64,000 bases of DNA, from contig CAIOKC010000027.1 in NCBI GenBank assembly GCA_903858755.1, forward strand, positions 2,192-66,191, in the 5' to 3' direction. Source of the stretch: an uncultured bacterium (GTDB taxonomy: Bacteria > Patescibacteriota > Minisyncoccia > Phycocordibacterales > UBA2100). Of this stretch, positions 8,221-30,147 are shown piece after piece; the stretch's first letter is position 1, and every line of letters starts with the position of its first letter. The position numbers and the translations under genes are program-made. The notes below the pieces were generated by a model that was given only the letters and a program-made list of their open reading frames with translations, searched no databases and was not told the origin of the DNA.

Positions 8221-8511
8221 GTTGCGCCATCGCCAGTGTAATGTATCCTCAAGAGAGCCGTCAGAAATGGCGGTGGTTAGAAGTGGAGAGCGAATGTATT
8301 CTAATGAGCGTGTGGCCCCTTATCGGGGATACGAGGAGAGGGGTTGGGATATACCCAACAATCGGACATGCGAACTCGCATAGTATCTGCGGAAACCCTC
8401 CGGTAGTCTCCCTACCGTAACGTTTTTCGGAAAACCTGCCGGTAACGGCAGACGAAAATGGAAAACGGCAGGAGTCGCTTTTCGTTAATTGCGAGCAATC
8501 GCATATACCAT
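8221..8511 (+). ncRNA. Structured 5' leader of glmS; possible glmS-ribozyme-like element
   Basis: A 290-nt ORF-free leader with AGCCGUCAGAAAUGGCGG (compare the glmS ribozyme P1 AGCGCCAGAACUGGC), ACGAGGAGAGGGG (compare GACGAGGAUGGAGG) and GCGGAAACCCUCCGG (compare GCGGAUGCCUCCCGG) in the same order as the ribozyme core. Confidence 0.3.
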
Positions 8512-19625: not shown

Positions 19626-21314
19626 TTACTGAACCTGGAACGTAAGCGTGTTCGATGTTCCCGAAGCATTGCTGACCGATACCTGGATAGGACCCGGCAT
19701 CACCTGCTGGATGCTCTGCGTGCAAAGCGTGCCCGGAGCCGCAAGGTCGCATGGCGAGACATACCACGGAATAGTGTAGTAGATGGTCGTGCCGTTGACG
19801 CTCGGGACATGCTGCGTGCCGCCCATACCGAAACGCACGGTATTATCGTTGTTGAATCCTGATCCGGTGATGATGAGCTGCGTACCGCGCGCACCAGTCG
19901 ATGGTGAGAGATACGAAATGGTCACGGGATTGTACGTGCCCGAGCCAGAGACAACGACGCTCGCCGAAGCGGAGTTCTGTTGAGCCGAAGCATTGCTCAC
20001 GGTGAAGGTCGGTGAGTACGTGCCATTGGCGTAGTACGTGTGCGTGAAAGTGAGCGTCGTCTGACCCTGCGAATAGATGGTCTGTGGAGCGACCGCGCTT
20101 GCGCCATACACATATGCATCACCCCAATTCACGGACGCGGTAAGATACGAGCCGCCCGGATTATTGACGACCAGCGTCCACGTGCCCTGCACGCCGGATT
20201 GCAGCGTAGTCGGACCGTTCACGCTCGTGATCGACGGCGCAACGCCGCTCGAGATTGAAGTGATGGTAAACGGAAGTGCGTTGCTCGAAAGACCGGCGCT
20301 ATTGGAGACGGAGACATCGTAGGTCCCTGCGACAATCGCCTGCGAGCCGAAGCCGGTGAGCTGCGCGGGAATGACGAAGGACACCGAGCGACCGTCGGGA
20401 GAATTCAGGTTGCCGATGATGCCGTTGCCGAAGTGGACGCTGTTGCCGGTCGTAGAGAACCCGCTACCGAAGACGGTGACCCATGTGCCCACAGTGCCTG
20501 AATTCGGCGAAAGGTAGCTCGCGACCGGAATGCCGTTTGTCGCGCCGCAGCCGTATCCGCCAAACGAACATCCGCATCCGTACGAGCCGCCGTACGAGTA
20601 TGTGCTGCATGGATACTGATTGTATTGGTTGTACGGATAGTACGTGCCGTAGGGGTAGAGCGTGAAGGTCATCTTATTGCTCGTACCGCGCGAATTCGAG
20701 ACGTAGAGTTCCACGCTCTGATTCTGACCATAGGAATACGTGGCGGGAACGACGAACGTGAGCGAGGTGCCATTCGAAGAGACTCCGGAGACCGCTTGCG
20801 AGCCGAAGTAGACGATGTTGTTGATCGGATCAAAACCGATTCCGTAGAGCGTGACCGTGTTGCCCGGTACGCCGGTGTTCTGCGACATCGACGTGATCGA
20901 GAGAGTGCCGGTCGGATACGTGGAATACGCCGGGTAGACAGAAGTGTACGGATACGCATTGAAGTTGTAGCTGAACGGATTGTACGCGGAGGAAGATGCG
21001 CCGAGATATCCGCAGCTCGCGGCATTGATTGCCGCGCGCGTCGCGCTGTCTACCGAGCCGGTCATCGCGAGACCCTGCGCTTGCTGGAAATTACGCACCG
21101 CAGCCGCGGTCGCCTGACCATAGTAGCCGGTTACCATCCACGACCCACCGCCCGGATAATTCTGGGAGACGAGAAAATTTTGAAGATTCGTGACCTGTGA
21201 ACCGCGAGAGCCAGTCGAGAGATCGCTGGTGAGCGAAATGCAGGTCTGCGCAGAGGCGACACTCGCGCCGAAAAGAGCGACTATGAAAAGGGCAGAGGGA
21301 ATAATTTTGTTCAT
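19626..21314 (-). CDS. Secreted surface protein with peptidoglycan-binding domain and IPT/TIG-like S/T/G/Y-rich repeats
   Basis: Signal peptide; PG_binding_1-like segment (GSRGSQVTNLQNFL...VRNFQQAQGLAMTG); long low-complexity Ser/Thr/Gly/Tyr region with repeated beta-domain motifs. Confidence 0.65.
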   Translation of the reverse strand: MNKIIPSALFIVALFGASVASAQTCISLTSDLSTGSRGSQVTNLQNFLVSQNYPGGGSWMVTGYYGQATAAAVRNFQQAQGLAMTGSVDSATRAAINAASCGYLGASSSAYNPFSYNFNAYPYTSVYPAYSTYPTGTLSITSMSQNTGVPGNTVTLYGIGFDPINNIVYFGSQAVSGVSSNGTSLTFVVPATYSYGQNQSVELYVSNSRGTSNKMTFTLYPYGTYYPYNQYNQYPCSTYSYGGSYGCGCSFGGYGCGATNGIPVASYLSPNSGTVGTWVTVFGSGFSTTGNSVHFGNGIIGNLNSPDGRSVSFVIPAQLTGFGSQAIVAGTYDVSVSNSAGLSSNALPFTITSISSGVAPSITSVNGPTTLQSGVQGTWTLVVNNPGGSYLTASVNWGDAYVYGASAVAPQTIYSQGQTTLTFTHTYYANGTYSPTFTVSNASAQQNSASASVVVSGSGTYNPVTISYLSPSTGARGTQLIITGSGFNNDNTVRFGMGGTQHVPSVNGTTIYYTIPWYVSPCDLAAPGTLCTQSIQQVMPGPIQVSVSNASGTSNTLTFQVQ

Positions 21315-21383
21315 GGCTAATGTATGGCTCTACGTAAGGGTTTTAGCCCTGATGAGCGGTTAGTGATAAGGATTAATGTCGGT

Positions 21384-21412
21384 ATTATACACCGAAATCT
21401 CGCCTAACGCAA
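21384..21412 (-). promoter_or_regulatory. Sigma70-like promoter (TTGCGT, 17 bp, TGtATAAT) upstream of the surface-protein gene
   Basis: The minus strand reads TTGCGTtaggcgagatttcggTGTATAAT, about 75 nt upstream of the ATG at 21314. Confidence 0.45.
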
Positions 21413-21418
21413 GCCCCA

Positions 21419-21880
21419 TTATTCGACCGATAGATCCCCGCGAAACTCCTGCCGGATATGTTTCTGCAACCGTCTATTCCGCGAGTGAGACAGGATACCG
21501 AGATACGATTCTCTGCTCTGCGTAAGCGCCATTTCGTCGATGAGTCCTTGTCGCAGCGCCTCGCTTCGTTCATGCAGTTTCCGCATCATCCGTTTCTTCG
21601 TTCTCGTACGGACGACGCGATGGTGCGGGAAGTGGACAAAGCCGAGAAAGTCGATACCTTTGCCGATCGTACCGAATCGCACTTTGTGCGGGTGCAGGGT
21701 CATAGACAATCGCTGTTCCAAAAACTCGCGTATCAAAGGCAGCAATCGTTCGAGTTCCTTTTTGTCGCGACTCAAAATGACGAAATCGTCGTTGTACCGG
21801 AGATACTGCTTGCAGCCTAACGTGCGCTTTACGTATTGATCCAGCGGATCGAGATAGACATTCGCAAAAACCCGCGAGGA
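21419..21880 (-). pseudogene. 5'-truncated DGR-type reverse transcriptase remnant (only RT motif 5 YxDD onward plus thumb)
   Basis: The frame encodes VYLDPLDQYVKRTLGCKQYLRYNDDFVILSRDKKELERL...GIDFLGFVHFP.... An in-frame TAA stop lies immediately upstream, within the loop of a terminator hairpin. There is no room for the RT fingers/palm domains before the TR. Confidence 0.6.
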
Positions 21881-21889
21881 TTAGTCGCG
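21851..21889. terminator. Bidirectional hairpin (A5-CCCGCGA/TCGCGGG-T5) between the TR and the RT remnant
   Basis: Perfect 12-bp stem AAAAACCCGCGA-CTAATCC-TCGCGGGTTTTT. Confidence 0.5.
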
Positions 21890-21906
21890 GGTTTTTGCCA
21901 ACCGTT

Positions 21907-22021
21907 CGGGAGAGGCAGACGCCAATGAACTCGTTGGTGATCCTCGGGTTGTTCCTGTTCACGTTCGCGCCGTCTCGATCGAAGTTGCCGACATACACGA
22001 GGTTGCCGTCGGAATCACGCC
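21907..22021 (-). repeat. DGR template repeat (TR)
   Basis: A 115-nt repeat homologous to the C-terminal coding end of the gene at 22280..24253. Of 20 mismatches, 18 fall at adenines of this copy on the coding strand. AAC-rich: NFDRDGANVNRNNPRITNEF. Confidence 0.8.
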
Positions 22022-22212
22022 TGCCGTTTGGCTCGGAGCCATCTGTGTAAGACCGCTGCGGATCCGAAGACCAGGCTGCGGCCTTGTGGGGTATACGATG
22101 TGCGCGATCACCCCCGTATCAGACTTCCGCGCCAGTTCCAAGCCAAAGCATGGTTGTATGGCGACCGGCATCCGTAAACGCCGGTTCATGAGCCATGCCT
22201 ATCATAGCAAAA

Positions 22213-22242
22213 ATTTTTCGGATGCATCGGCTCTAACCGAGC
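22213..22242 (-). terminator. GC hairpin plus T-run about 40 nt downstream of the VR/target stop codon
   Basis: GCATCGGCTC-GGTTA-GAGCCGATGC followed by ATCCGAAAAATTTTT on the minus strand. Confidence 0.45.
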
Positions 22243-22279
22243 CGATGCGACTCAAAAGGCAAAACACAAGGCACAAAAA

Positions 22280-24253
22280 TCACATGCGGGAGAGACAGAC
22301 GCCAAGGAACTCGTCGGTGAGCCCCGGGCTGTGCCCGCGCACGAACGCGCCGTCCCGAGCGAAGCTGCCGACACACACGAGGCTGCCGCCGGAAGTACGC
22401 CCTGAAGTCCATGTATATATACTGGGCAACAATTTCTCCGATCGCGCCTGATCGTTGAGGACAAGGCGGTACATCGCTTCAACGGGCCGCTCGCGAGTCA
22501 GCTTCGTGATCGCAAGCTCGCTCAATCGCCTCGAACCCTCTTGCCACTCGGAAATAGTGCTCGACGTGGCAAGGCGTGCCAGTTCCGTTTTCTGTCGATT
22601 GAAGTCATCTATCGCCGTACCGAAGGTCGGAGGAAGGACACGCCCCTTGAACACGTCGTTTTTCAAATGTGCAATTACCGTCTCCGTTTGTTGCACGTAA
22701 TTCTGCGACAGAGAATTGGGCACCACTTCGTCAGAGGTAAGGTGCCAGCCCACGCGGGGCTTCTCGCTTTTGAAAAACTCCTCGTTGTTGTACCAGTCCT
22801 GATCGTAATACATCGGATTACCGTCGTGCGCTTTTGCAAACTTCTCTTTCATATTTTTGAGCGTCACATCGACAATCTCGGACGCACCTTTGCGTCCGGA
22901 CCGTCCCGGCTTCTCCATCACCATCTTGTCGGTGTAAAGAATCAATTTTTGACCAAGGCGCTTTGCGTTTTCCAGATCGGCTCGCGAGAACTGGATCGGA
23001 TCCGTGCGATCGACGCCGAAGACGCGCCTTACATCCGCATATCCGAACACTTTTTCTTGTCCCATGATGCGCTCGGCTTCTGCGATCGTCATACCTTCGA
23101 CCCCTGCCTCGGGTGCTGTCGGCGGAGCTTCGGCTGGTATCTCTTGCGCCCCCAACTCGCGGCGTTTCGTGTTCTGCGGAGGCGCGTAGACGACCGTGTT
23201 GATGAGCGCCTGAATCTTGTCGCGATCGGCCTGATCGCTCACGCGGTTGGTGTAGTAGTAGCGGAGCGCGTCTTGGAAGGTTTTGTTGATGTCGCCGCGA
23301 TAGAATCGTTGCACGAACTCGAATATGCGCTTGTCGTCGCGGGGAGTGGCAAACGCGACCGGTTGCGGCTGACCTCGTGCGATCGTCCGGTTCTCCACTT
23401 CATTCCGCAGCGCTTCCGATACTTCCACGTACCGCGCAAGCAACTCTTCGATGCCAGGAATCGTGGCGACCTCCGCTTCGGAGAGCATTTCGCCTTGCGC
23501 GAGATACTCCTCTTTCGGAATATTAATCCTATTGTCCTTGCCCAAACGTCCCAAAAGACGTGCCGTGCGTGTTTTCTCATCGAGACGATCCGGTTCTTTG
23601 ATATACACGAAGCGATCGATCTGCGCGGGGTCGAGCACTTCACGATCACCATATGAGCCGCCCGGAGGATTCTGCGCCGCGACGATGCGAAATTCGGGAT
23701 GTACTTTCACTATCTCGCTATTATTTTCGGTGAGTACGATCTCGCCTTTGCCGCGAAGGATCGAATCGAGGACTTCGTGCAGACGGCCACGGGTATCGCC
23801 GCGCATGAAATTGTATTCGTCGAGAAAGAGCACCCCGCCCTGGCGAGCCGCTTGCAATATCACGCCGTCTTTCCAGCCGAAGCCGCTTTTGGTGTCTTCG
23901 CGCACCGTCTGCGACCCGATCAGCGTGTCCGCATCATAGTCGTGGCAGTTGGCATAGTACGTTTCTCGGTTGAGTTCGGCGCACATACGATCCACCGTCT
24001 GCGATTTACCAAGACCGGAACCGCCTTCGACAAGCACGGGCTGATTGAGCGAGAGGCCGACCGCGATCTTTTGCGAGAGGCGCAGATCGTATTCGGTGAG
24101 CGTGTCGTTCTTGAAGCGATCGAGATTCGGGACATTCACGCCGCCTACGCCCTTCATCACTTCCGTGCCGAGATACGAGACAGATTTTTCTTTGTCCTCA
24201 AAAGGCGGAGGGGCATCTTTTCGCAACTGTTCCGGTTTGAATCGCTCGATCAT
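22280..24253 (-). CDS. MoxR-like AAA+ ATPase (AAA_5) fused to a C-terminal FGE/C-type-lectin-like domain carrying the DGR VR
   Basis: Walker A VLVEGGSGLGKSQ, Walker B VLFLDEYNF, sensor AAQNP. The C-terminus has an RTSGGS...GVCLSR FGE/CLec-like end containing the VR. Confidence 0.8.
   Translation of the reverse strand: MIERFKPEQLRKDAPPPFEDKEKSVSYLGTEVMKGVGGVNVPNLDRFKNDTLTEYDLRLSQKIAVGLSLNQPVLVEGGSGLGKSQTVDRMCAELNRETYYANCHDYDADTLIGSQTVREDTKSGFGWKDGVILQAARQGGVLFLDEYNFMRGDTRGRLHEVLDSILRGKGEIVLTENNSEIVKVHPEFRIVAAQNPPGGSYGDREVLDPAQIDRFVYIKEPDRLDEKTRTARLLGRLGKDNRINIPKEEYLAQGEMLSEAEVATIPGIEELLARYVEVSEALRNEVENRTIARGQPQPVAFATPRDDKRIFEFVQRFYRGDINKTFQDALRYYYTNRVSDQADRDKIQALINTVVYAPPQNTKRRELGAQEIPAEAPPTAPEAGVEGMTIAEAERIMGQEKVFGYADVRRVFGVDRTDPIQFSRADLENAKRLGQKLILYTDKMVMEKPGRSGRKGASEIVDVTLKNMKEKFAKAHDGNPMYYDQDWYNNEEFFKSEKPRVGWHLTSDEVVPNSLSQNYVQQTETVIAHLKNDVFKGRVLPPTFGTAIDDFNRQKTELARLATSSTISEWQEGSRRLSELAITKLTRERPVEAMYRLVLNDQARSEKLLPSIYTWTSGRTSGGSLVCVGSFARDGAFVRGHSPGLTDEFLGVCLSRM
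22287..22401 (-). repeat. DGR variable repeat (VR) at the 3' end of the AAA+ target gene
   Basis: Encodes SFARDGAFVRGHSPGLTDEFLGVCLSRM*. It differs from the TR almost only at TR-adenine positions (N to S, F, R, H, S, D). Confidence 0.8.
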
Positions 24254-24669
24254 ACTTGTTCGATGAGTCCCACCTTTTCCCGGACGGAGAAGCCGCTTGT
24301 TTCTATTTTCTCAAGATCACCAACGCTCACTAGAACAACAAAATGGGTGTGAAGAGGATCGAACTGTGCAGCCTTGTATTCCATTGTTTCTTTGTCCATC
24401 AGCTGCACCATGCCGCCCCGCTCGGTGTATTGCGCGATGAAATCGTACCACTGTTTCAAGAGCGGATGAGAAATCGTGGCGACCACGGACTTTCCGGCTT
24501 GCATAAGATCGAGAGCATCAACCGGTGAACTGGTTCGGGTAAAGCCCGCATCCACGAGTACTCGCCCCGCATCAATCAGGTCCGTGTATTCGTCGCAGAC
24601 GATGAGAGCCGCCTCTTTTTGCTTCTGCACATATCCGATAAATTCGGACAGACTGTTAGAATTCGTCAT
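24250..24669 (-). CDS. Small hypothetical protein coupled between the vWA and AAA+ genes
   Basis: Its stop overlaps the AAA+ start (ATGA). It shows no recognisable motifs and has a possible small alpha/beta fold. Start is ATG 24669 or TTG 24687. Confidence 0.45.
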   Translation of the reverse strand: MTNSNSLSEFIGYVQKQKEAALIVCDEYTDLIDAGRVLVDAGFTRTSSPVDALDLMQAGKSVVATISHPLLKQWYDFIAQYTERGGMVQLMDKETMEYKAAQFDPLHTHFVVLVSVGDLEKIETSGFSVREKVGLIEQV

Positions 24670-26812
24670 ACCGCTCGATTGCGTCAAGTATAAGGTCTGC
24701 CAGCTTTTCCGCCATCTCCTCTACGCTCACATTCGCTATGCTGTTTGGGTAGTATTGCCGGACGTGCTCGGTGCCGCGTCCTAGCCCGAGGCCGATGAGC
24801 TTTTGGTCGGTTTCCGCTTCAATGCGCTTCACGACTGATTCCAGGTCATATTGCGGTCCCCTGCGGTGAGGGGAAGGGACAGGAAGACCGTCTGATATTG
24901 GAATAAGGAACTTCTCACTTGCATCCGCCTGCGCAAGCCGTTTCGATGCCTCCGAGAGTGCCCACCCGTCGTCGTTCCATCTCGCATGGCCCGTCTTCAC
25001 TTCTTGCAGCATGCTGCCCATGTTCTCACGCACTGCGTCGGAAAGCGGAGCGCTGAATCTGCGGTATTCTCGCAGCTCATCGTGAAAACCCAGAATCTCG
25101 GTTTTTATCGAAAGCCGGTTGAGCGCTTCGGTGAGCGCTACCGCGCCTTGGAATGCGGCGCGAATCTTGTCTCCGCGAGACATGGAGCCGGAGAGGTCCA
25201 CAAGGAGCGTAAAGGCATGGTCTTTTTCGATCGGCTTGTCGCGCCTTTGCCACGCACGGCTTTTTGGCGCAGGAACGTCTTTGGCGATCTCTTGAATGCG
25301 TTTCTGTATGCGGATGCGGGGACCGGACTTCTTGCCGGGCTCCCATCCGCGAGCTTTGCGGGCACGGAATATGTTGCGCAAATCGTTTTCGAGGCGGTTG
25401 ACGACATCCGCGACTTCCCGCAATGCTTCGTCGTATGCGTCTCTTTTGCCTTCGAGAATATCCCGTATCTGGTCTTGCACGCTCGATCGGTCGAATCCTT
25501 CGAGCGGATCGCGGAGACTGGTCGTATCTGTATCTACTGGTTGTTTTCTTTCCGCCACTTGATCTGAAAGTTTACCCTTCAGTTTCTCACCGAGCTTGTC
25601 CTCGATATCCCGAATTGCTTGCCTCGCCTTTTCTTCGAGTTCGCGTCTCTTCTCTTCCGGCAACGATTCAACGTACTCTTTGATCTTTTCTTTCGTCTCG
25701 GGCGAAAGCAAATCCATATCGATCACAACATCGTTGCCGCCTTGCTTTTCGTCTTGATTTGATCGCTTGCCCTGAGCTTGTCGAAGGGCTTCGCGTATCG
25801 CACCCTCGATTTCCTTTTGCTGATCCGGCGTCAGGTTGTCTTTCAATTCCTGCGGCAAATTCGGTTGTCCTTGTCCGCCTTCGCCCTGCTGCATTTCCTG
25901 TATCGCTTTCTGCGTACGCTCGTCTTTCATATCCTCGTCGACGAGCCTCTTGTACTCCGGCCAGATATTGTCGCGGTTGATCTCGTATGAGCGTTTCGCG
26001 TACGCTTCAATCGTCGCTTCGCTTTGATCGGCCTCGTCTTTCGACGGATAGCGCCACCAGGAATCCTGCGCGGCTGAGAGCGTTTTCTGCACGACCGCTT
26101 TCACATCGTCGGGGAGCGTCTTGTCGATCTCAAACTCTTTTCCATGCACTTCGCGGAACCACTGTTTGATGTATTCGAGCCCTGCTCGCGCGAAGCGGGG
26201 CGTGAAACCCAATTTTTTCTTCGTTTTTTTCATTTCAGCCTCGAACTCCTGATCGAGCGTGTATGTCGCGTCGCGGTCGGCGGAGAGCGCAGGATACGCC
26301 TCGGTGATGAAATTGTTGTCGCGAGGATCTTCGATCGCGTTGGACATGAACGCAAACCCCGGTTGACGCCACACGTCGTCGGGAATAAAACTCGTGCGAC
26401 TAATGCGACGGTGCCCTCCTTCATGCGCCGTCACCCAGCGGGAGTACGAGAGCGGCTTTTTGAGCAAATCCTTCGGGTCGACCTTGATGTGGTTGTCCTT
26501 GAAGTTCCAGTGCCAACCCGCGCCCGGACGATTCAGAAGCACGGGAATCTCGAAGTCCTTGCCGATAAAGTACGCGATGGACGATAGAACGCGCTGCTTG
26601 TACCTGATCTCTTGTCGCTGCGACTCGTTGAATCCGGCAAGTATCTGTTCGTCCTCGTTGCGATTTGGTCCCTCCTGTCCTCGCGGTCTGCGCGGTCCCA
26701 TTGCTTCGAGACGGTTCAAGCCTTTCATGGGCGAATTGTGGCACATCAAAAGCCCCTCTGACAGCCGGTATGGGATAACCATCAACATTGCTCTTTGAAA
26801 CGGCTGTTGCAA
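24656..26812 (-). CDS. vWA (von Willebrand factor A) domain protein with N-terminal HEGGH zincin-like motif and Lys/Glu-rich coiled-coil
   Basis: C-terminal vWA domain with MIDAS DLSGSMS. N-terminal WVTAHEGGHRR (HExxH). Central charged low-complexity region. Start is TTG 26812 or ATG 26788. Confidence 0.75.
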   Translation of the reverse strand: MQQPFQRAMLMVIPYRLSEGLLMCHNSPMKGLNRLEAMGPRRPRGQEGPNRNEDEQILAGFNESQRQEIRYKQRVLSSIAYFIGKDFEIPVLLNRPGAGWHWNFKDNHIKVDPKDLLKKPLSYSRWVTAHEGGHRRISRTSFIPDDVWRQPGFAFMSNAIEDPRDNNFITEAYPALSADRDATYTLDQEFEAEMKKTKKKLGFTPRFARAGLEYIKQWFREVHGKEFEIDKTLPDDVKAVVQKTLSAAQDSWWRYPSKDEADQSEATIEAYAKRSYEINRDNIWPEYKRLVDEDMKDERTQKAIQEMQQGEGGQGQPNLPQELKDNLTPDQQKEIEGAIREALRQAQGKRSNQDEKQGGNDVVIDMDLLSPETKEKIKEYVESLPEEKRRELEEKARQAIRDIEDKLGEKLKGKLSDQVAERKQPVDTDTTSLRDPLEGFDRSSVQDQIRDILEGKRDAYDEALREVADVVNRLENDLRNIFRARKARGWEPGKKSGPRIRIQKRIQEIAKDVPAPKSRAWQRRDKPIEKDHAFTLLVDLSGSMSRGDKIRAAFQGAVALTEALNRLSIKTEILGFHDELREYRRFSAPLSDAVRENMGSMLQEVKTGHARWNDDGWALSEASKRLAQADASEKFLIPISDGLPVPSPHRRGPQYDLESVVKRIEAETDQKLIGLGLGRGTEHVRQYYPNSIANVSVEEMAEKLADLILDAIERYDEF

Positions 26813-28288: not shown

Positions 28289-29296
28289 TTATTGCCCAGC
28301 ACTGGAAGATCCTCGCACGAAATCTTTCAGGTCGTCTCGTATTTTTAGTGCTATGTGCTTCGCGAAAGAGACCGGCACGGCATTGCCTATCATTTTGTAG
28401 CCGTCTGCCACGTTTTCGTATTTAAGTATAAACGTGTCGGGAAATGCCTGGATTCGCGCACACTCGCGGACCGAAAGCCGCCTGTATAGACGCTCCTTAC
28501 CGGGCACAAAAATCCGCTTGTTTTGTTCGACAAATTTCATCTTCGGAGCTTGCGGATGGATCGGGGCGTGTCGCCCTCCGGCTTGAATCGTGAACGAAGG
28601 CTCGTCCCACCCTCGAACACGGTTGCGGGACATGTAGATGGTGGAAAACCCGCCCGTCATATATTCGTGATTTGGTACCTTCAGCGACCTGTTTGCTTTG
28701 TTGGACGGTTTTGCGGGCACGGCATCTTTCAAATCGGAGATCGCATCGCCGAGGACAGGTCTTTCCGAAAGCGGTCGCGGGGGAATGAAATCTCTTCCGA
28801 CTTTCTTGTGATAGCCGACGATAATGACGCGCCACCGCTCTTGCGGCACTCCGTAGTCGTTGGCATTCAACAGGTTGTAAGTGACGCGGTACCCCACGTC
28901 GCTAAAACTCTTCAGGATATCCTCGAAAGCACTTTTATGACGCGGATGCAGAATGCCCGAGACATTCTCGGCTAGGAAAAACAGCGGCTGCTTGTCGCGA
29001 AGAACGCGGATGTACTCATAAAAAAGCTTGCCTCTGCTGTCGTGTATCCCCCTTCCCGCTCCCGCTTCGCTCCAACTCTGGCATGGCGGACCCCCTATGA
29101 TCCCGACTGCTGCGGGCACATCTTCAGATGGCACGTCGATAATACTGCGCTTGTCGAGATGCGTATGGGGGAAATTGTGCTCGAATGTCGACCATATAGA
29201 AGGATCGTATTCATTCGCCCAGTCCACATCAAAACCCGCCTGCTCGAAACCGAGGTCGAGACCGCCAGCTCCCGTAAAGAGTGAGACGAGTTTCAT
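28289..29296 (-). CDS. DNA (cytosine-5)-methyltransferase
   Basis: Motif I FTGAGG, motif IV GGPPCQSWS, ENV (LAENV), QERWRVIIVG. Start trimmed to ATG 29296, which overlaps the stop of the upstream gene (ATGA). Confidence 0.85.
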   Translation of the reverse strand: MKLVSLFTGAGGLDLGFEQAGFDVDWANEYDPSIWSTFEHNFPHTHLDKRSIIDVPSEDVPAAVGIIGGPPCQSWSEAGAGRGIHDSRGKLFYEYIRVLRDKQPLFFLAENVSGILHPRHKSAFEDILKSFSDVGYRVTYNLLNANDYGVPQERWRVIIVGYHKKVGRDFIPPRPLSERPVLGDAISDLKDAVPAKPSNKANRSLKVPNHEYMTGGFSTIYMSRNRVRGWDEPSFTIQAGGRHAPIHPQAPKMKFVEQNKRIFVPGKERLYRRLSVRECARIQAFPDTFILKYENVADGYKMIGNAVPVSFAKHIALKIRDDLKDFVRGSSSAGQ

Positions 29297-30147
29297 CGTG
29301 TATATCGTACCAGCTTCGCTCGGAGCGACTTCGCCGCGTTGTTCGGGGATTGTATCTCGATATCTTCGATACGAAGCCCTGGGATCTTGGAGTTCTCGAG
29401 TGTTTTTCGGCTTTCTTTCGGGAAAGATTCGTATTTTTCTTTGAGCATCACTGCCGTAAGAGCAAAGTCCGCTTCCGACGACACCTCCGGAATATGCCTG
29501 AAGACTCTCGAAGGGTGCTGTATTGACCACATGCCCCGTATACGTAAATCCGTTATCCCTAGAGGATCAACTCTGTTCACTCTCCCCAATTCGTTGGTCT
29601 CTCCAAATTCAATATCCGGCAAGGCATCAATGCCGCCAGCTATAGAGTCTCGTATCTTTTCATACGTATCTCGACTCGCTGCATAACAATCCCCATACAC
29701 GAACCATAGAGACTTTACCCTATTGTCCTCAATGCCTCCTATCGCATAGAGCATATCCTTCCTCGTCCACTCTTCGCACTCACGGCAACTTGCTGTAATC
29801 ATGGGACTGTCTGCGTACAGGTAGTCTTTTGGATACGAGCTGTTGAGAGCGATCCCATTCGAGCGTCTGCCGATGTACTTTTTCACTTCGATCGCATCGC
29901 CCTCTCGTATGATAGCGTCCGGAGGGTTGTTCTGATTTCCCAAGTACGAGAAAAACTGAGGGTAGATTTTCTCTTTCTCCGACAGCCTCTTTCCAGAAAG
30001 AGTGCCGCTGAACGCGTCTTTGACGTAAAACTCCAAAGCGGCGCCCATCGCATTTGCTCGATTGGGAGCGGTCTTTCGGGGTGATGCCAGACTAGGCGCT
30101 GGCTCCGATGCGATATTCCGTATAGCAATCAACAAATCGGTTTTCAT
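29293..30147 (-). CDS. Putative type II restriction endonuclease partnering the m5C methyltransferase
   Basis: Translationally coupled upstream of the methyltransferase. Contains a PD-(D/E)xK-like segment (GDAIEVKK). Family not assignable by eye. Confidence 0.45.
   Translation of the reverse strand: MKTDLLIAIRNIASEPAPSLASPRKTAPNRANAMGAALEFYVKDAFSGTLSGKRLSEKEKIYPQFFSYLGNQNNPPDAIIREGDAIEVKKYIGRRSNGIALNSSYPKDYLYADSPMITASCRECEEWTRKDMLYAIGGIEDNRVKSLWFVYGDCYAASRDTYEKIRDSIAGGIDALPDIEFGETNELGRVNRVDPLGITDLRIRGMWSIQHPSRVFRHIPEVSSEADFALTAVMLKEKYESFPKESRKTLENSKIPGLRIEDIEIQSPNNAAKSLRAKLVRYTR

Follow-up and report, generated by a model that had tools for sequence, protein, structure and literature searches.

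Does a repeat pair with a near-perfect adenine signature, lying beside a reverse transcriptase (RT) reading frame that has lost its front half, belong to a diversity-generating retroelement (DGR) that still varies its target, or is it what remains of one that no longer can? A preliminary description of the locus had named it a DGR, either a fossil or one served in trans by an RT elsewhere. We addressed this question in the 64-kb stretch of DNA that holds the locus (hereafter, the window) and in related loci, chief among them an orthologue, L006, whose target protein is 83% identical to that of the window. The features of the locus and the evidence that places them are as follows.

21419..21864, minus strand: RT remnant, C-terminal ~148 codons plus stop (Pfam RVT_1, structure match, comparison with L006)
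21864..21865, no strand: deletion junction (BLASTN colinearity with L006; also present in L003 and L004)
21865..21897, minus strand: 13-bp hairpin CAAAAACCCGCGA-ctaatcc-TCGCGGGTTTTTG, directly 3' of the TR (match in L006)
21903..22022, minus strand: template repeat (TR), non-coding; 115-nt repeat pair at 21907-22021 (ungapped local alignment and repeat search)
22023..22223, minus strand: VR-TR spacer with several predicted stem-loops (74% nucleotide identity to L006)
22224..22248, minus strand: GC-rich hairpin (10-bp stem, then an A/T run), 32 nt past the target stop codon (fold)
22283..22402, minus strand: variable repeat (VR), which forms the final 40 codons of the target; 115-nt repeat pair at 22287-22401
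22280..24253, minus strand: DGR target gene, 657 aa, intact (AAA_5 Pfam match, predicted fold)
24250..24687, minus strand: small conserved protein, 137-145 aa, between the VWA and ATPase genes (conserved position)
24656..26812, minus strand: VWA-domain (CobT_C / NorD-like) partner, first gene of a three-gene unit (Pfam CobT_C, E = 3e-18)

Repeat search and ungapped local alignment recovered the same repeat pair, 115 nt long at 83% identity with a spacing of 380. Read on the minus strand, which is the coding strand, TR and VR differ at 20 positions; in 18 of them the TR base is A, changed to G in 10 cases, to C in 6, and to T in 2, and the VR carries A at only one mismatch. For 26 adenines in 115 nt, a share of at least 18 in 20 has a hypergeometric P of 5.3e-13. 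Within the core at 22015-21926, all 18 mismatches fall on adenines, with 18 of the 26 TR adenines altered. The two non-adenine mismatches are G>A at 22016 and C>T at 21915, the latter synonymous. The similarity can be extended to 21903-22022, which adds an A>G at 22022; the 3' end of the extended repeat (GAACG/GCATG) differs in L006 as well. Differences thus fall almost exclusively on adenines of the non-coding copy, as the preliminary description had claimed for this pair with the same boundaries and counts. The enrichment persisted on re-alignment, and the repeat translations quoted there were correct, including an AAC-rich TR (seven AAC codons in the VR frame). No second VR-like copy of the TR was found within the 64-kb window.

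The VR lies at the C-terminus of the target protein, which comprises an N-terminal MoxR-class AAA+ ATPase domain (AAA_5), a helical middle region, and a C-type-lectin/FGE-like variable domain predicted with high confidence to adopt the fold of DGR variable proteins. Foldseek's top matches for the AAA domain were CbbQ2 (1.7e-13) and NorQ of the NorQ-NorD VWA complex. By their AAA_5 and CobT_C matches, the adjacent ATPase and VWA genes resemble the MoxR-vWA pairs of the CbbQ/CbbO, NorQ/NorD, and CobS/CobT type. The VWA gene and the small protein occupy the same places in L003, L004, L006, and L007, and the VWA-small-ATPase order is conserved in both L006 and L007. The small protein has no Pfam, NCBIfam, or PADLOC match, and PADLOC assigned none of the three proteins to a defence system. 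The cassette is surrounded by tRNA and housekeeping genes.

The RT reading frame retains the end of motif 4 (FANVYL), motif 5 (YNDD), motifs 6-7, and the thumb, and lacks motifs 1-3, including the catalytic aspartate of motif 3. It matches Pfam RVT_1 at positions 129-203 of 205 (E = 2.3e-9, above the gathering score) and aligns to residues 186-284 of the 328-residue chain 8ub7_A, deposited as 'Reverse transcriptase', which from the aligned sequence we take to be the Bordetella phage DGR bRT. Relative to both 8ub7_A and the L006 RT, ~190 N-terminal residues are absent, and tblastn with full-length homologues did not find the missing half anywhere in the 64-kb window. Upstream, the frame is closed by a TAA at 21883-21881 in the loop of the 13-bp hairpin, and its first in-frame ATG, GTG, or TTG is the TTG at 21775, downstream of YNDD. 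The locus therefore has no complete, translatable RT with motifs 1-7 and all catalytic aspartates, and the earlier picture of a 5'-truncated RT that starts just before YxDD, without fingers and palm or a usable start, holds. What survives is well preserved: the remnant shares 58% amino acid identity with the L006 RT and of 30 residues that never vary among 13 relatives it keeps 28, the other two being changed.

Pfam, NCBIfam, and PADLOC have no dedicated DGR-RT profile; RT class was judged by structure matches and gene neighbours. Among solved structures 8ub7_A was the best match both for the remnant (1.2e-12 versus 9e-10 for group II/retron-type RTs) and for the intact L006 RT (1.1e-44 versus 1e-23). 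Orthologous loci carry bAvd and their own A-specific TR/VR pairs; by the 8ub7_A match and these neighbours of its homologues, the RT adjoining the TR belongs to the DGR clade. The preliminary description had offered kinship with group II maturases as the result that would speak against a DGR. The NCBIfam model group_II_RT_mat (TIGR04416) gave 60 bits for the remnant and 142 bits for the L006 RT against a cut-off of 300, and Rfam scans of the region and of the window found no group II intron or retron RNA. Hence, neither an above-threshold match to the group II family nor a surrounding ribozyme accompanies the remnant.

How the front half was lost can be read from L006, which is colinear and intact: a VWA protein, a small protein, an AAA-ATPase target with VR, TR, hairpin, a reversed avd encoding an intact 123-aa Avd, and a 345-aa RT. 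BLASTN aligned window 26749-21865 with L006 3484-8388, and window 21864-21596 with L006 9324-9592. Exactly 935 bp (L006:8389-9323) are therefore missing from the window, comprising avd except its last ~6 codons and RT codons 1 to ~190/191; the left end of the deletion falls directly after the TR-proximal hairpin and the right end within RT motif 4. A single deletion of ~935 bp thus took both avd and the first ~190 residues of the RT. The sequence TTTTTG is common to both ends, and the deletion probably arose by slippage of the microhomology type. The mapped deletion, together with a tblastn search of the 64-kb window using the Avd proteins of L001 and L007 that found none, bears out the earlier statement that no avd gene is present, and leaves the locus without the Avd expected of architecture B.

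The same junction, TR, and VR occur in the window, L003, and L004, three independent assemblies of one strain that come from different samples, are 99.95-99.99% identical, and differ by 1 and 5 SNPs, all outside the TR, VR, and RT; a fourth contig encodes an identical target protein. Because junction and repeats are shared in full by assemblies that carry SNPs elsewhere, the deletion is real and the VR seemingly static. The preliminary description had looked to strain variants for VR heterogeneity limited to TR-adenine positions. That expectation failed: the VR is identical in all three, with 1-5 SNPs elsewhere, in a comparison of assembled consensus sequences from few samples at 0.01-0.05% divergence. 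To the extent that the assembled consensus of a few samples reveals it, the VR looks static.

The hairpin that now abuts the RT remnant had been described as a terminator hairpin enclosing the stop that precedes the RT. The TAA does lie in its loop, but the hairpin is an ancestral part of the cassette and not a product of the break, judging from its distribution among relatives. A nearly identical copy stands at the TR/avd boundary of L006 (L006:8356-8388), where the convergent avd ends within it, the overlap taking in the final codons and the stop, and most of 75 related loci have a strong hairpin at the avd stop in some form. We considered whether the residues SSRV ahead of FANVYL could be diverged RT sequence (TSQL) and rejected this; they belong to the hairpin's 3' arm, and the hairpin also stands beside avd in L006. 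On the other side of the TR, the 10-bp hairpin is likely a terminator and/or a VR-flanking hairpin. Its position is kept in relatives, with the same sequence in L005 and L006 and a different sequence of the same structure in L007. The spacer presumably holds the TR promoter and 5' leader, and the segment 21860-22280 has a fold z-score of -3.1. No Rfam family was found in the spacer, TR, or hairpin beyond sub-threshold chance matches (Thr_leader, veev_FSE). A simple scan of 21300-22400 likewise gave no sigma-70-like promoter or terminator, the hairpins failing its T-run spacing rule.

Despite its present state, the element has been active in the past. At all 13 non-adenine sites that differ between the TRs of the window and L006, each VR follows its own TR, a pattern of concerted evolution by TR-to-VR transfer. 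Because each lineage's VR mirrors the changes of its own TR, homing must have worked after the two lineages split, and the loss of RT and avd is therefore fairly recent in evolutionary terms; TR, VR, and RT remnant are still almost undecayed. Slight decay is visible in the two non-adenine TR/VR mismatches and the two changed RT positions, and L006 has no non-adenine mismatch in the homogenised interval. The two mismatches are weak evidence for drift, since CPR DGRs are reported often to make non-A substitutions (PMC5758913).

The ancestral order would have been VWA, small gene, AAA-ATPase target ending in VR, terminator hairpin, spacer, TR, hairpin, opposite-strand avd, and RT. By analogy with the Bordetella paradigm, TR RNA would have been copied by an RT-Avd complex with misincorporation opposite adenines, and the cDNA would have replaced the VR, varying ~15 codons on the ligand-binding face of the C-type-lectin-like domain. 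The deletion left a locus without fingers, palm motifs 1-3, start codon, or Avd; because such a locus cannot make cDNA, the VR would be fixed as it last stood, and the MoxR-VWA system would go on working with a single specificity. We therefore regard the locus, very probably, as an inactivated chromosomal DGR of the Patescibacteria type, a fossil with an AAA/Midasin target. The deletion and the VR identity in three assemblies favour this over the trans-served half of the original choice, and the DGR identity itself is supported. The verdict covers 64 kb of the genome.

Comparison with further relatives, which for both RT and target are almost only Patescibacteria MAGs, places the window in a series of decay. 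L006 is intact; the window has the 935-bp deletion; L007 (target 59% identical) keeps the gene order, has bAvd, and carries a 3'-truncated RT; and L005 (target 84% identical) retains a VR only, without TR, avd, or RT. L001, L002, L006, and L007 all encode Avd, as do 75 of 88 related loci overall. That the RT family might be naturally 'split', or the TR lie inside the RT gene, was rejected, as most loci have one continuous RT of ~340 aa. RT homologues in protein databases are nearly all short (140-270 aa), which reflects truncation at contig ends, start codons called too far downstream, and changes of frame at simple-sequence tracts. Such tracts, length-variable (GA)n, (CA)n, or poly-G, sit in a single, fixed linker of related RT genes, and 15 of 84 such genes are out of frame at one. 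From sequence, this suggests phase-variable hypermutation, which, if true, would amount to a reversible on/off switch on targeted hypermutation.

The TR and hairpin of the window are perfectly intact, as would also be expected if they were still used. This raises the alternative that the locus is an active satellite DGR, its TR-hairpin RNA reverse-transcribed in trans by an RT-Avd elsewhere in the genome or in a co-resident phage or DGR, with the VR still diversifying. The 3' hairpin, TR, VR, and target ORF are all preserved, the 90-nt core has 18 of 18 mismatches at A, and the left end of the deletion spares the hairpin by exactly one base. Some scanned genomes do have two RT loci (L038 and L049 belong to one MAG; L017 and L027 have two RT matches each), and the arrangement would agree with a tendency of the family to have its RT switched off, given the 15 of 84 related RT genes that are out of frame. 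Against this stand the VR identity in at least three assemblies with SNPs elsewhere, the two non-A mismatches inside the homing interval versus none in intact L006, and the finding of no second RT, Avd, or TR within 64 kb. GTDB genomes searched for a second RT of the source genome gave a best RT match of 51% identity, and neither the VR flank nor the hairpin, used as exact patterns, matched anything in the JGI metagenomes scanned. According to published work on the Bordetella element, the RT-Avd complex of a DGR recognises the TR-spacer RNA of its own element, and cross-service would accordingly need a closely related partner. We consider service in trans improbable. If true, it would mean that hypermutation of a MoxR-type sensor is controlled by the presence of a separate 'driver', such as another DGR or an infecting or co-resident element.

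Less probable still, by a wide step, is that the truncation is an artefact of assembly or binning, a collapsed or chimeric join at the hairpin that conceals an intact avd-RT. Mis-joins are possible at hairpins and T-runs, and three other assemblies do end 410-450 bp further downstream, two contigs at window 21453 and one at 21416. However, the identical junction comes from different pipelines and samples (the window contig, the MEGAHIT k141 contig L003, and L004, a scaffold from another project), and none of these three breaks at the junction itself. Finally, a non-DGR origin, with the repeat pair a plain duplication and the RT piece left over from a retron, a defence RT, or a group II intron, is effectively refuted, as the matches to group II, Drt, and UG RT models in NCBIfam and PADLOC are weak and all far below curated cut-offs (60 bits versus 300), the best structural relative is the presumed DGR bRT 8ub7_A, orthologous loci have bAvd and A-specific TR/VR pairs of their own, Rfam scans lack group II intron or retron RNA, and the A-bias has P = 5e-13.

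As an inactivated DGR the case is ordinary, decayed DGRs being common in this sub-family and generally. It matters little in itself beyond presenting a clean, datable DGR death by one deletion, probably of the microhomology type, in which a working gene would keep a frozen variable region, and it marks one point in a decay series of the AAA-ATPase/VWA target (intact, RT-broken, TR-less). It also cautions that a perfect adenine signature in a TR/VR pair is not equivalent to current activity. Two by-products, the fold of the AAA/Midasin target and the simple-sequence tracts of the RT, may matter more than the fossil; the former extends the predicted C-type-lectin/FGE scaffold of Mtd and TvpA, with high confidence, to AAA/Midasin-class CPR targets.

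The locus resembles the DGR of Bordetella phage BPP-1 (mtd-avd-TR-brt) in its A-specific differences, in a VR at the 3' end of a target ORF with a C-type-lectin fold (predicted here), in its closest solved RT relative (8ub7_A, taken as bRT), and in the Avd of its orthologues. Unlike the phage-borne BPP-1 element, it is cellular, targets a cytoplasmic-type AAA+ ATPase instead of a tail fibre, and has a non-functional RT. In the orthologues, avd points the opposite way and is placed between the TR and the RT, and where BPP-1 has a 140-nt spacer after its TR they have only a hairpin of ~35 nt.

Closer parallels are the CPR DGRs of 'architecture B3' with UVR4 (Midasin/AAA-ATPase) targets, as characterised by Wu et al. 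(2018, NAR, PMC5758913); CPR/Patescibacteria DGRs of this B3/UVR4 type correspond to clade 2 of Roux et al. (2021, PMC8144416). Shared features are the Patescibacteria hosts of the homologues, an AAA (AAA_5/Midasin-like) target with a short C-terminal VR, and a chromosomal location. The orthologues' avd, on the strand opposite to the RT and just after the TR, is taken to be the B3 subtype. The window copy differs in lacking avd and the N-terminal half of the RT, and would therefore have been dropped from curated 'putatively functional' sets; Wu et al. rejected over half of their candidate DGRs because the repeats matched poorly or because of truncations or premature stops (PMC5758913). Whereas Wu et al. 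left the UVR4 target fold open (PMC5758913), the target here is predicted to have a C-type-lectin/FGE fold.

The gene unit is also similar to the MoxR-vWA ternary conflict systems of Kaur, Burroughs, Iyer, and Aravind (2020, eLife, PMC7159879), in which a single operon encodes a MoxR AAA+ protein, its vWA partner, and a small third component, and a domain of FGE/C-type-lectin type is diversified by a DGR. In contrast to those systems, the variable domain here forms part of the ATPase polypeptide, the genome is Patescibacteria-like, and no VMAP or iSTAND component was recognised at the locus. Lastly, like inactivated or remnant DGRs in general, the locus has a truncated RT, has lost accessory genes, and keeps a recognisable TR/VR pair; here, in contrast, comparison with an intact orthologue pinpoints the lesion, and the close relatives form a decay series.

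The template repeat (TR, 22022-21903) and variable repeat (VR, 22402-22283) of the diversity-generating retroelement (DGR) align without gaps on the minus strand. Within the 115 nt compared in the preliminary description, 18 of the 20 mismatches fall where the TR has A, a bias with a chance probability of 5e-13 given 26 A in 115 nt (hypergeometric), which bears out the claim of an adenine-specific repeat pair. Between 22015 and 21926 all 18 mismatches lie at A, so that 18 of 26 TR adenines are altered; outside adenines the copies differ at two positions of the 115 nt, 22016 (G>A) and 21915 (C>T). The elements are arranged as follows.

22402-22283, minus strand: VR, forming the final 40 codons of an ORF of 657 aa (22280-24253)
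22022-21903, minus strand: TR, non-coding, with seven AAC codons in the VR frame
21897-21865, minus strand: hairpin directly after the TR, near-identical in the intact orthologous locus L006 and there overlapping the stop codon of avd

The reverse transcriptase (RT) frame 3' of the TR matches Pfam RVT_1 over its final third alone (positions 129-203 of 205). It aligns with a chain of 328 aa, 8ub7_A (deposited title 'Reverse transcriptase'), at residues 186-284; we take the aligned sequence to be the Bordetella DGR bRT. It is closed upstream by a TAA in the hairpin loop, and no start codon was found ahead of YNDD, in agreement with the earlier view of a 5'-truncated RT lacking a usable start. 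Furthermore, tblastn with full-length relatives as queries detected neither the RT N-terminal half nor the accessory protein Avd anywhere in the 64-kb window, so the reported lack of avd also stands. The possibility raised there that the RT groups with group II intron maturases finds no support: the intact RT of L006 matches 8ub7_A at 1.1e-44 versus 1e-23 for RTs of the group II and retron types, 8ub7_A is likewise the best-scoring chain for the remnant, the NCBIfam group II model scores far under its cut-off, and Rfam scans of the region and the window were negative for intron and retron RNA. In L003 (a MEGAHIT k141 contig) and L004 (a scaffold from another project), both assemblies of the window's strain, the public gene calls give, in place of the RT frame, an ORF of 120-121 aa that runs antisense to the remnant (21458-21820, plus strand). 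This call is probably spurious, and it is because of it that the exact 118-aa RT-frame ORF is missing from the protein collection.

A protein search with the VR-carrying target retrieved close homologues, whose contigs share a conserved unit comprising a VWA (CobT_C) protein, a protein of ~138 aa and the AAA_5 target with its VR, followed by the TR, bAvd in reverse orientation and the RT. L006, with a target 83% identical to that of the window, has every element of this unit, including Avd (123 aa) and RT (~345 aa), both intact, and 22 of 23 mismatches in its TR/VR pair are at A. By BLASTN the two loci are colinear (window 26749-21865 with L006 3484-8388; window 21864-21596 with L006 9324-9592) save for 935 bp (L006:8389-9323) that have no window counterpart. 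The lost segment comprises avd, apart from the final six codons, and RT codons 1-~191. At the junction, GGGTTTTTG|CGAATGTC, the spanning TTT-GCG codes for F-A, the family consensus in 'SQLFANVYL'; from this we infer that TTTTTG probably served as the deletion microhomology.

L003 and L004, from other samples and 99.99% and 99.95% identical to the window, both carry its junction, TR, VR and RT remnant, with 1 and 5 SNPs (at 28604, 27818, 27807, 27796 and 23574) and none in 21416-22402, and a fourth contig encodes an identical target protein. The deletion is therefore real, and the VR is invariant at the consensus level. Pattern scans of JGI metagenomes gave no match. The preliminary description had offered a choice between a fossil and an element served in trans. 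The TR-hairpin, still intact in the window, could in principle be used by an RT-Avd pair encoded at another place in the genome; given the real deletion and the constant consensus VR, we consider such service improbable and favor a decayed element.

Homing operated in the window lineage after its split from L006: at 13 non-A sites the TR of the window departs from that of L006, and in both lineages the VR matches its own TR at 13 of 13. Decay since then is slight: the homogenised interval holds two non-A mismatches in the window and none in L006, and the RT remnant has two changes at positions invariant in 13 relatives. Taken alone, the non-A mismatches argue weakly for decay, because non-A substitutions are reported for CPR DGRs (PMC5758913).

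Most of 75 related loci (L001-L088) have a strong, GC-rich hairpin at the same place. It separates the TR from the convergent avd, as a rule lying across or next to the stop codon of avd, and its structure recurs although the sequence varies. Given this recurrence and the near-identity with L006, the hairpin belongs to the cassette, where it probably terminates transcription from both sides and may also form part of the DGR RNA.

AlphaFold models the target with a pLDDT of 90 overall and 97.6 for residues 387-657, and the VR is predicted to lie on the usual C-type-lectin scaffold. Structure comparison places the N-terminal domain nearest the MoxR-class ATPases CbbQ and NorQ, whose partners are VWA proteins, a likeness that fits the neighboring CobT_C/VWA gene. 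A restriction-modification pair (~28289-30147, minus strand; NgoPII-type endonuclease and C5 DNA methylase, from Pfam marks on L003 and L004) shares the strand of the VWA-ATPase unit and lies some 1.5 kb upstream of it, beyond a PPIase gene and small ORFs. Directly downstream of the remnant, a gene without synteny in L006 (19626-21314, minus strand) encodes a protein of 562 aa that looks secreted and carries a peptidoglycan-binding domain plus three IPT/TIG repeats. The window contig continues past the 3' terminus of the remnant, where three independent same-strain assemblies stop: L003 and a contig of ERZ1426820 at position 21453, and L004 at 21416. L006 synteny likewise stops nearby (~21596). 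The stretch 21416-21453, of which no repeat was found in the window, may be a strain-variable boundary. Elsewhere, a glmS ribozyme/riboswitch lies at 8296-8477 (plus strand; 49.2 bits, Rfam gathering score 37).

Further stages of DGR decay are seen in two relatives. L007 (L007:8695-9510; target 59% identical) has a TR and avd, with the RT cut by a convergent peptidase gene ~20 residues past YADD; L005 (L005:2101-3600; target 84% identical) retains a VR-like C-terminus, and no TR, avd or RT was found in the 6 kb downstream of its target.

Homologous RTs are mostly short entries in the protein listing. In 15 of 84 related Patescibacteria loci (L001:5947-5978, L002:5898-5931, L009, L013, L016, L018, L031, L032, L035, L041, L047, L063, L068, L080 and L087) the RT reading is broken into two frames, always at the motif 3-4 linker and always at a simple-sequence tract: (GA)8-17 in 11, (CA)16 in one and poly-G of 10-12 in three. 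A change of one unit, plus or minus, restores a single 337-365-aa ORF in all dinucleotide cases, and two more loci carry in-frame (GA)10 or (AG)10 tracts (L060:5954-5973, L078:1658-1677). Five assemblies of one population, with contigs 99.9% identical, all have the RT out of frame.

L093:4887-4932, (AG)23
L094:4881-4932, (AG)26
L095:4887-4932, (AG)23
L096:1493-1528, (AG)18
L097:4947-4956, N gap

L093 and L094 differ by four SNPs. One of them (L093:2557) falls on a TR-adenine site within a VR, a hint of ongoing diversification despite an OFF consensus RT. These patterns suggest slipped-strand ON/OFF phase variation of the RT, and hence of hypermutation; alternatively, the frame breaks are errors at repeats or are overcome by translational by-pass. 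We found no report joining DGRs with such repeats in the searchable literature. The window lesion is not such a case: the L006 linker has no tract, and the break lies ~13 codons downstream of it.

Architecture B3 accounts for 90% of CPR DGRs, inactivated elements make up more than half of DGR candidates, and targets of the UVR4 VR class match a Midasin AAA domain, their fold undecided (Wu et al. 2018, PMC5758913). A cell-encoded clade restricted to Patescibacteria has been defined (Roux et al. 2021, PMC8144416), and in DGR-linked MoxR-vWA ternary systems the variable domain sits on the vWA protein (Kaur et al. 2020, PMC7159879). The window element lacks a complete RT, Avd and, across consensus assemblies, current diversification; with its TR/VR pair, RT clade and predicted C-type-lectin fold, it is a decayed member of the known Patescibacteria/CPR class of DGRs.
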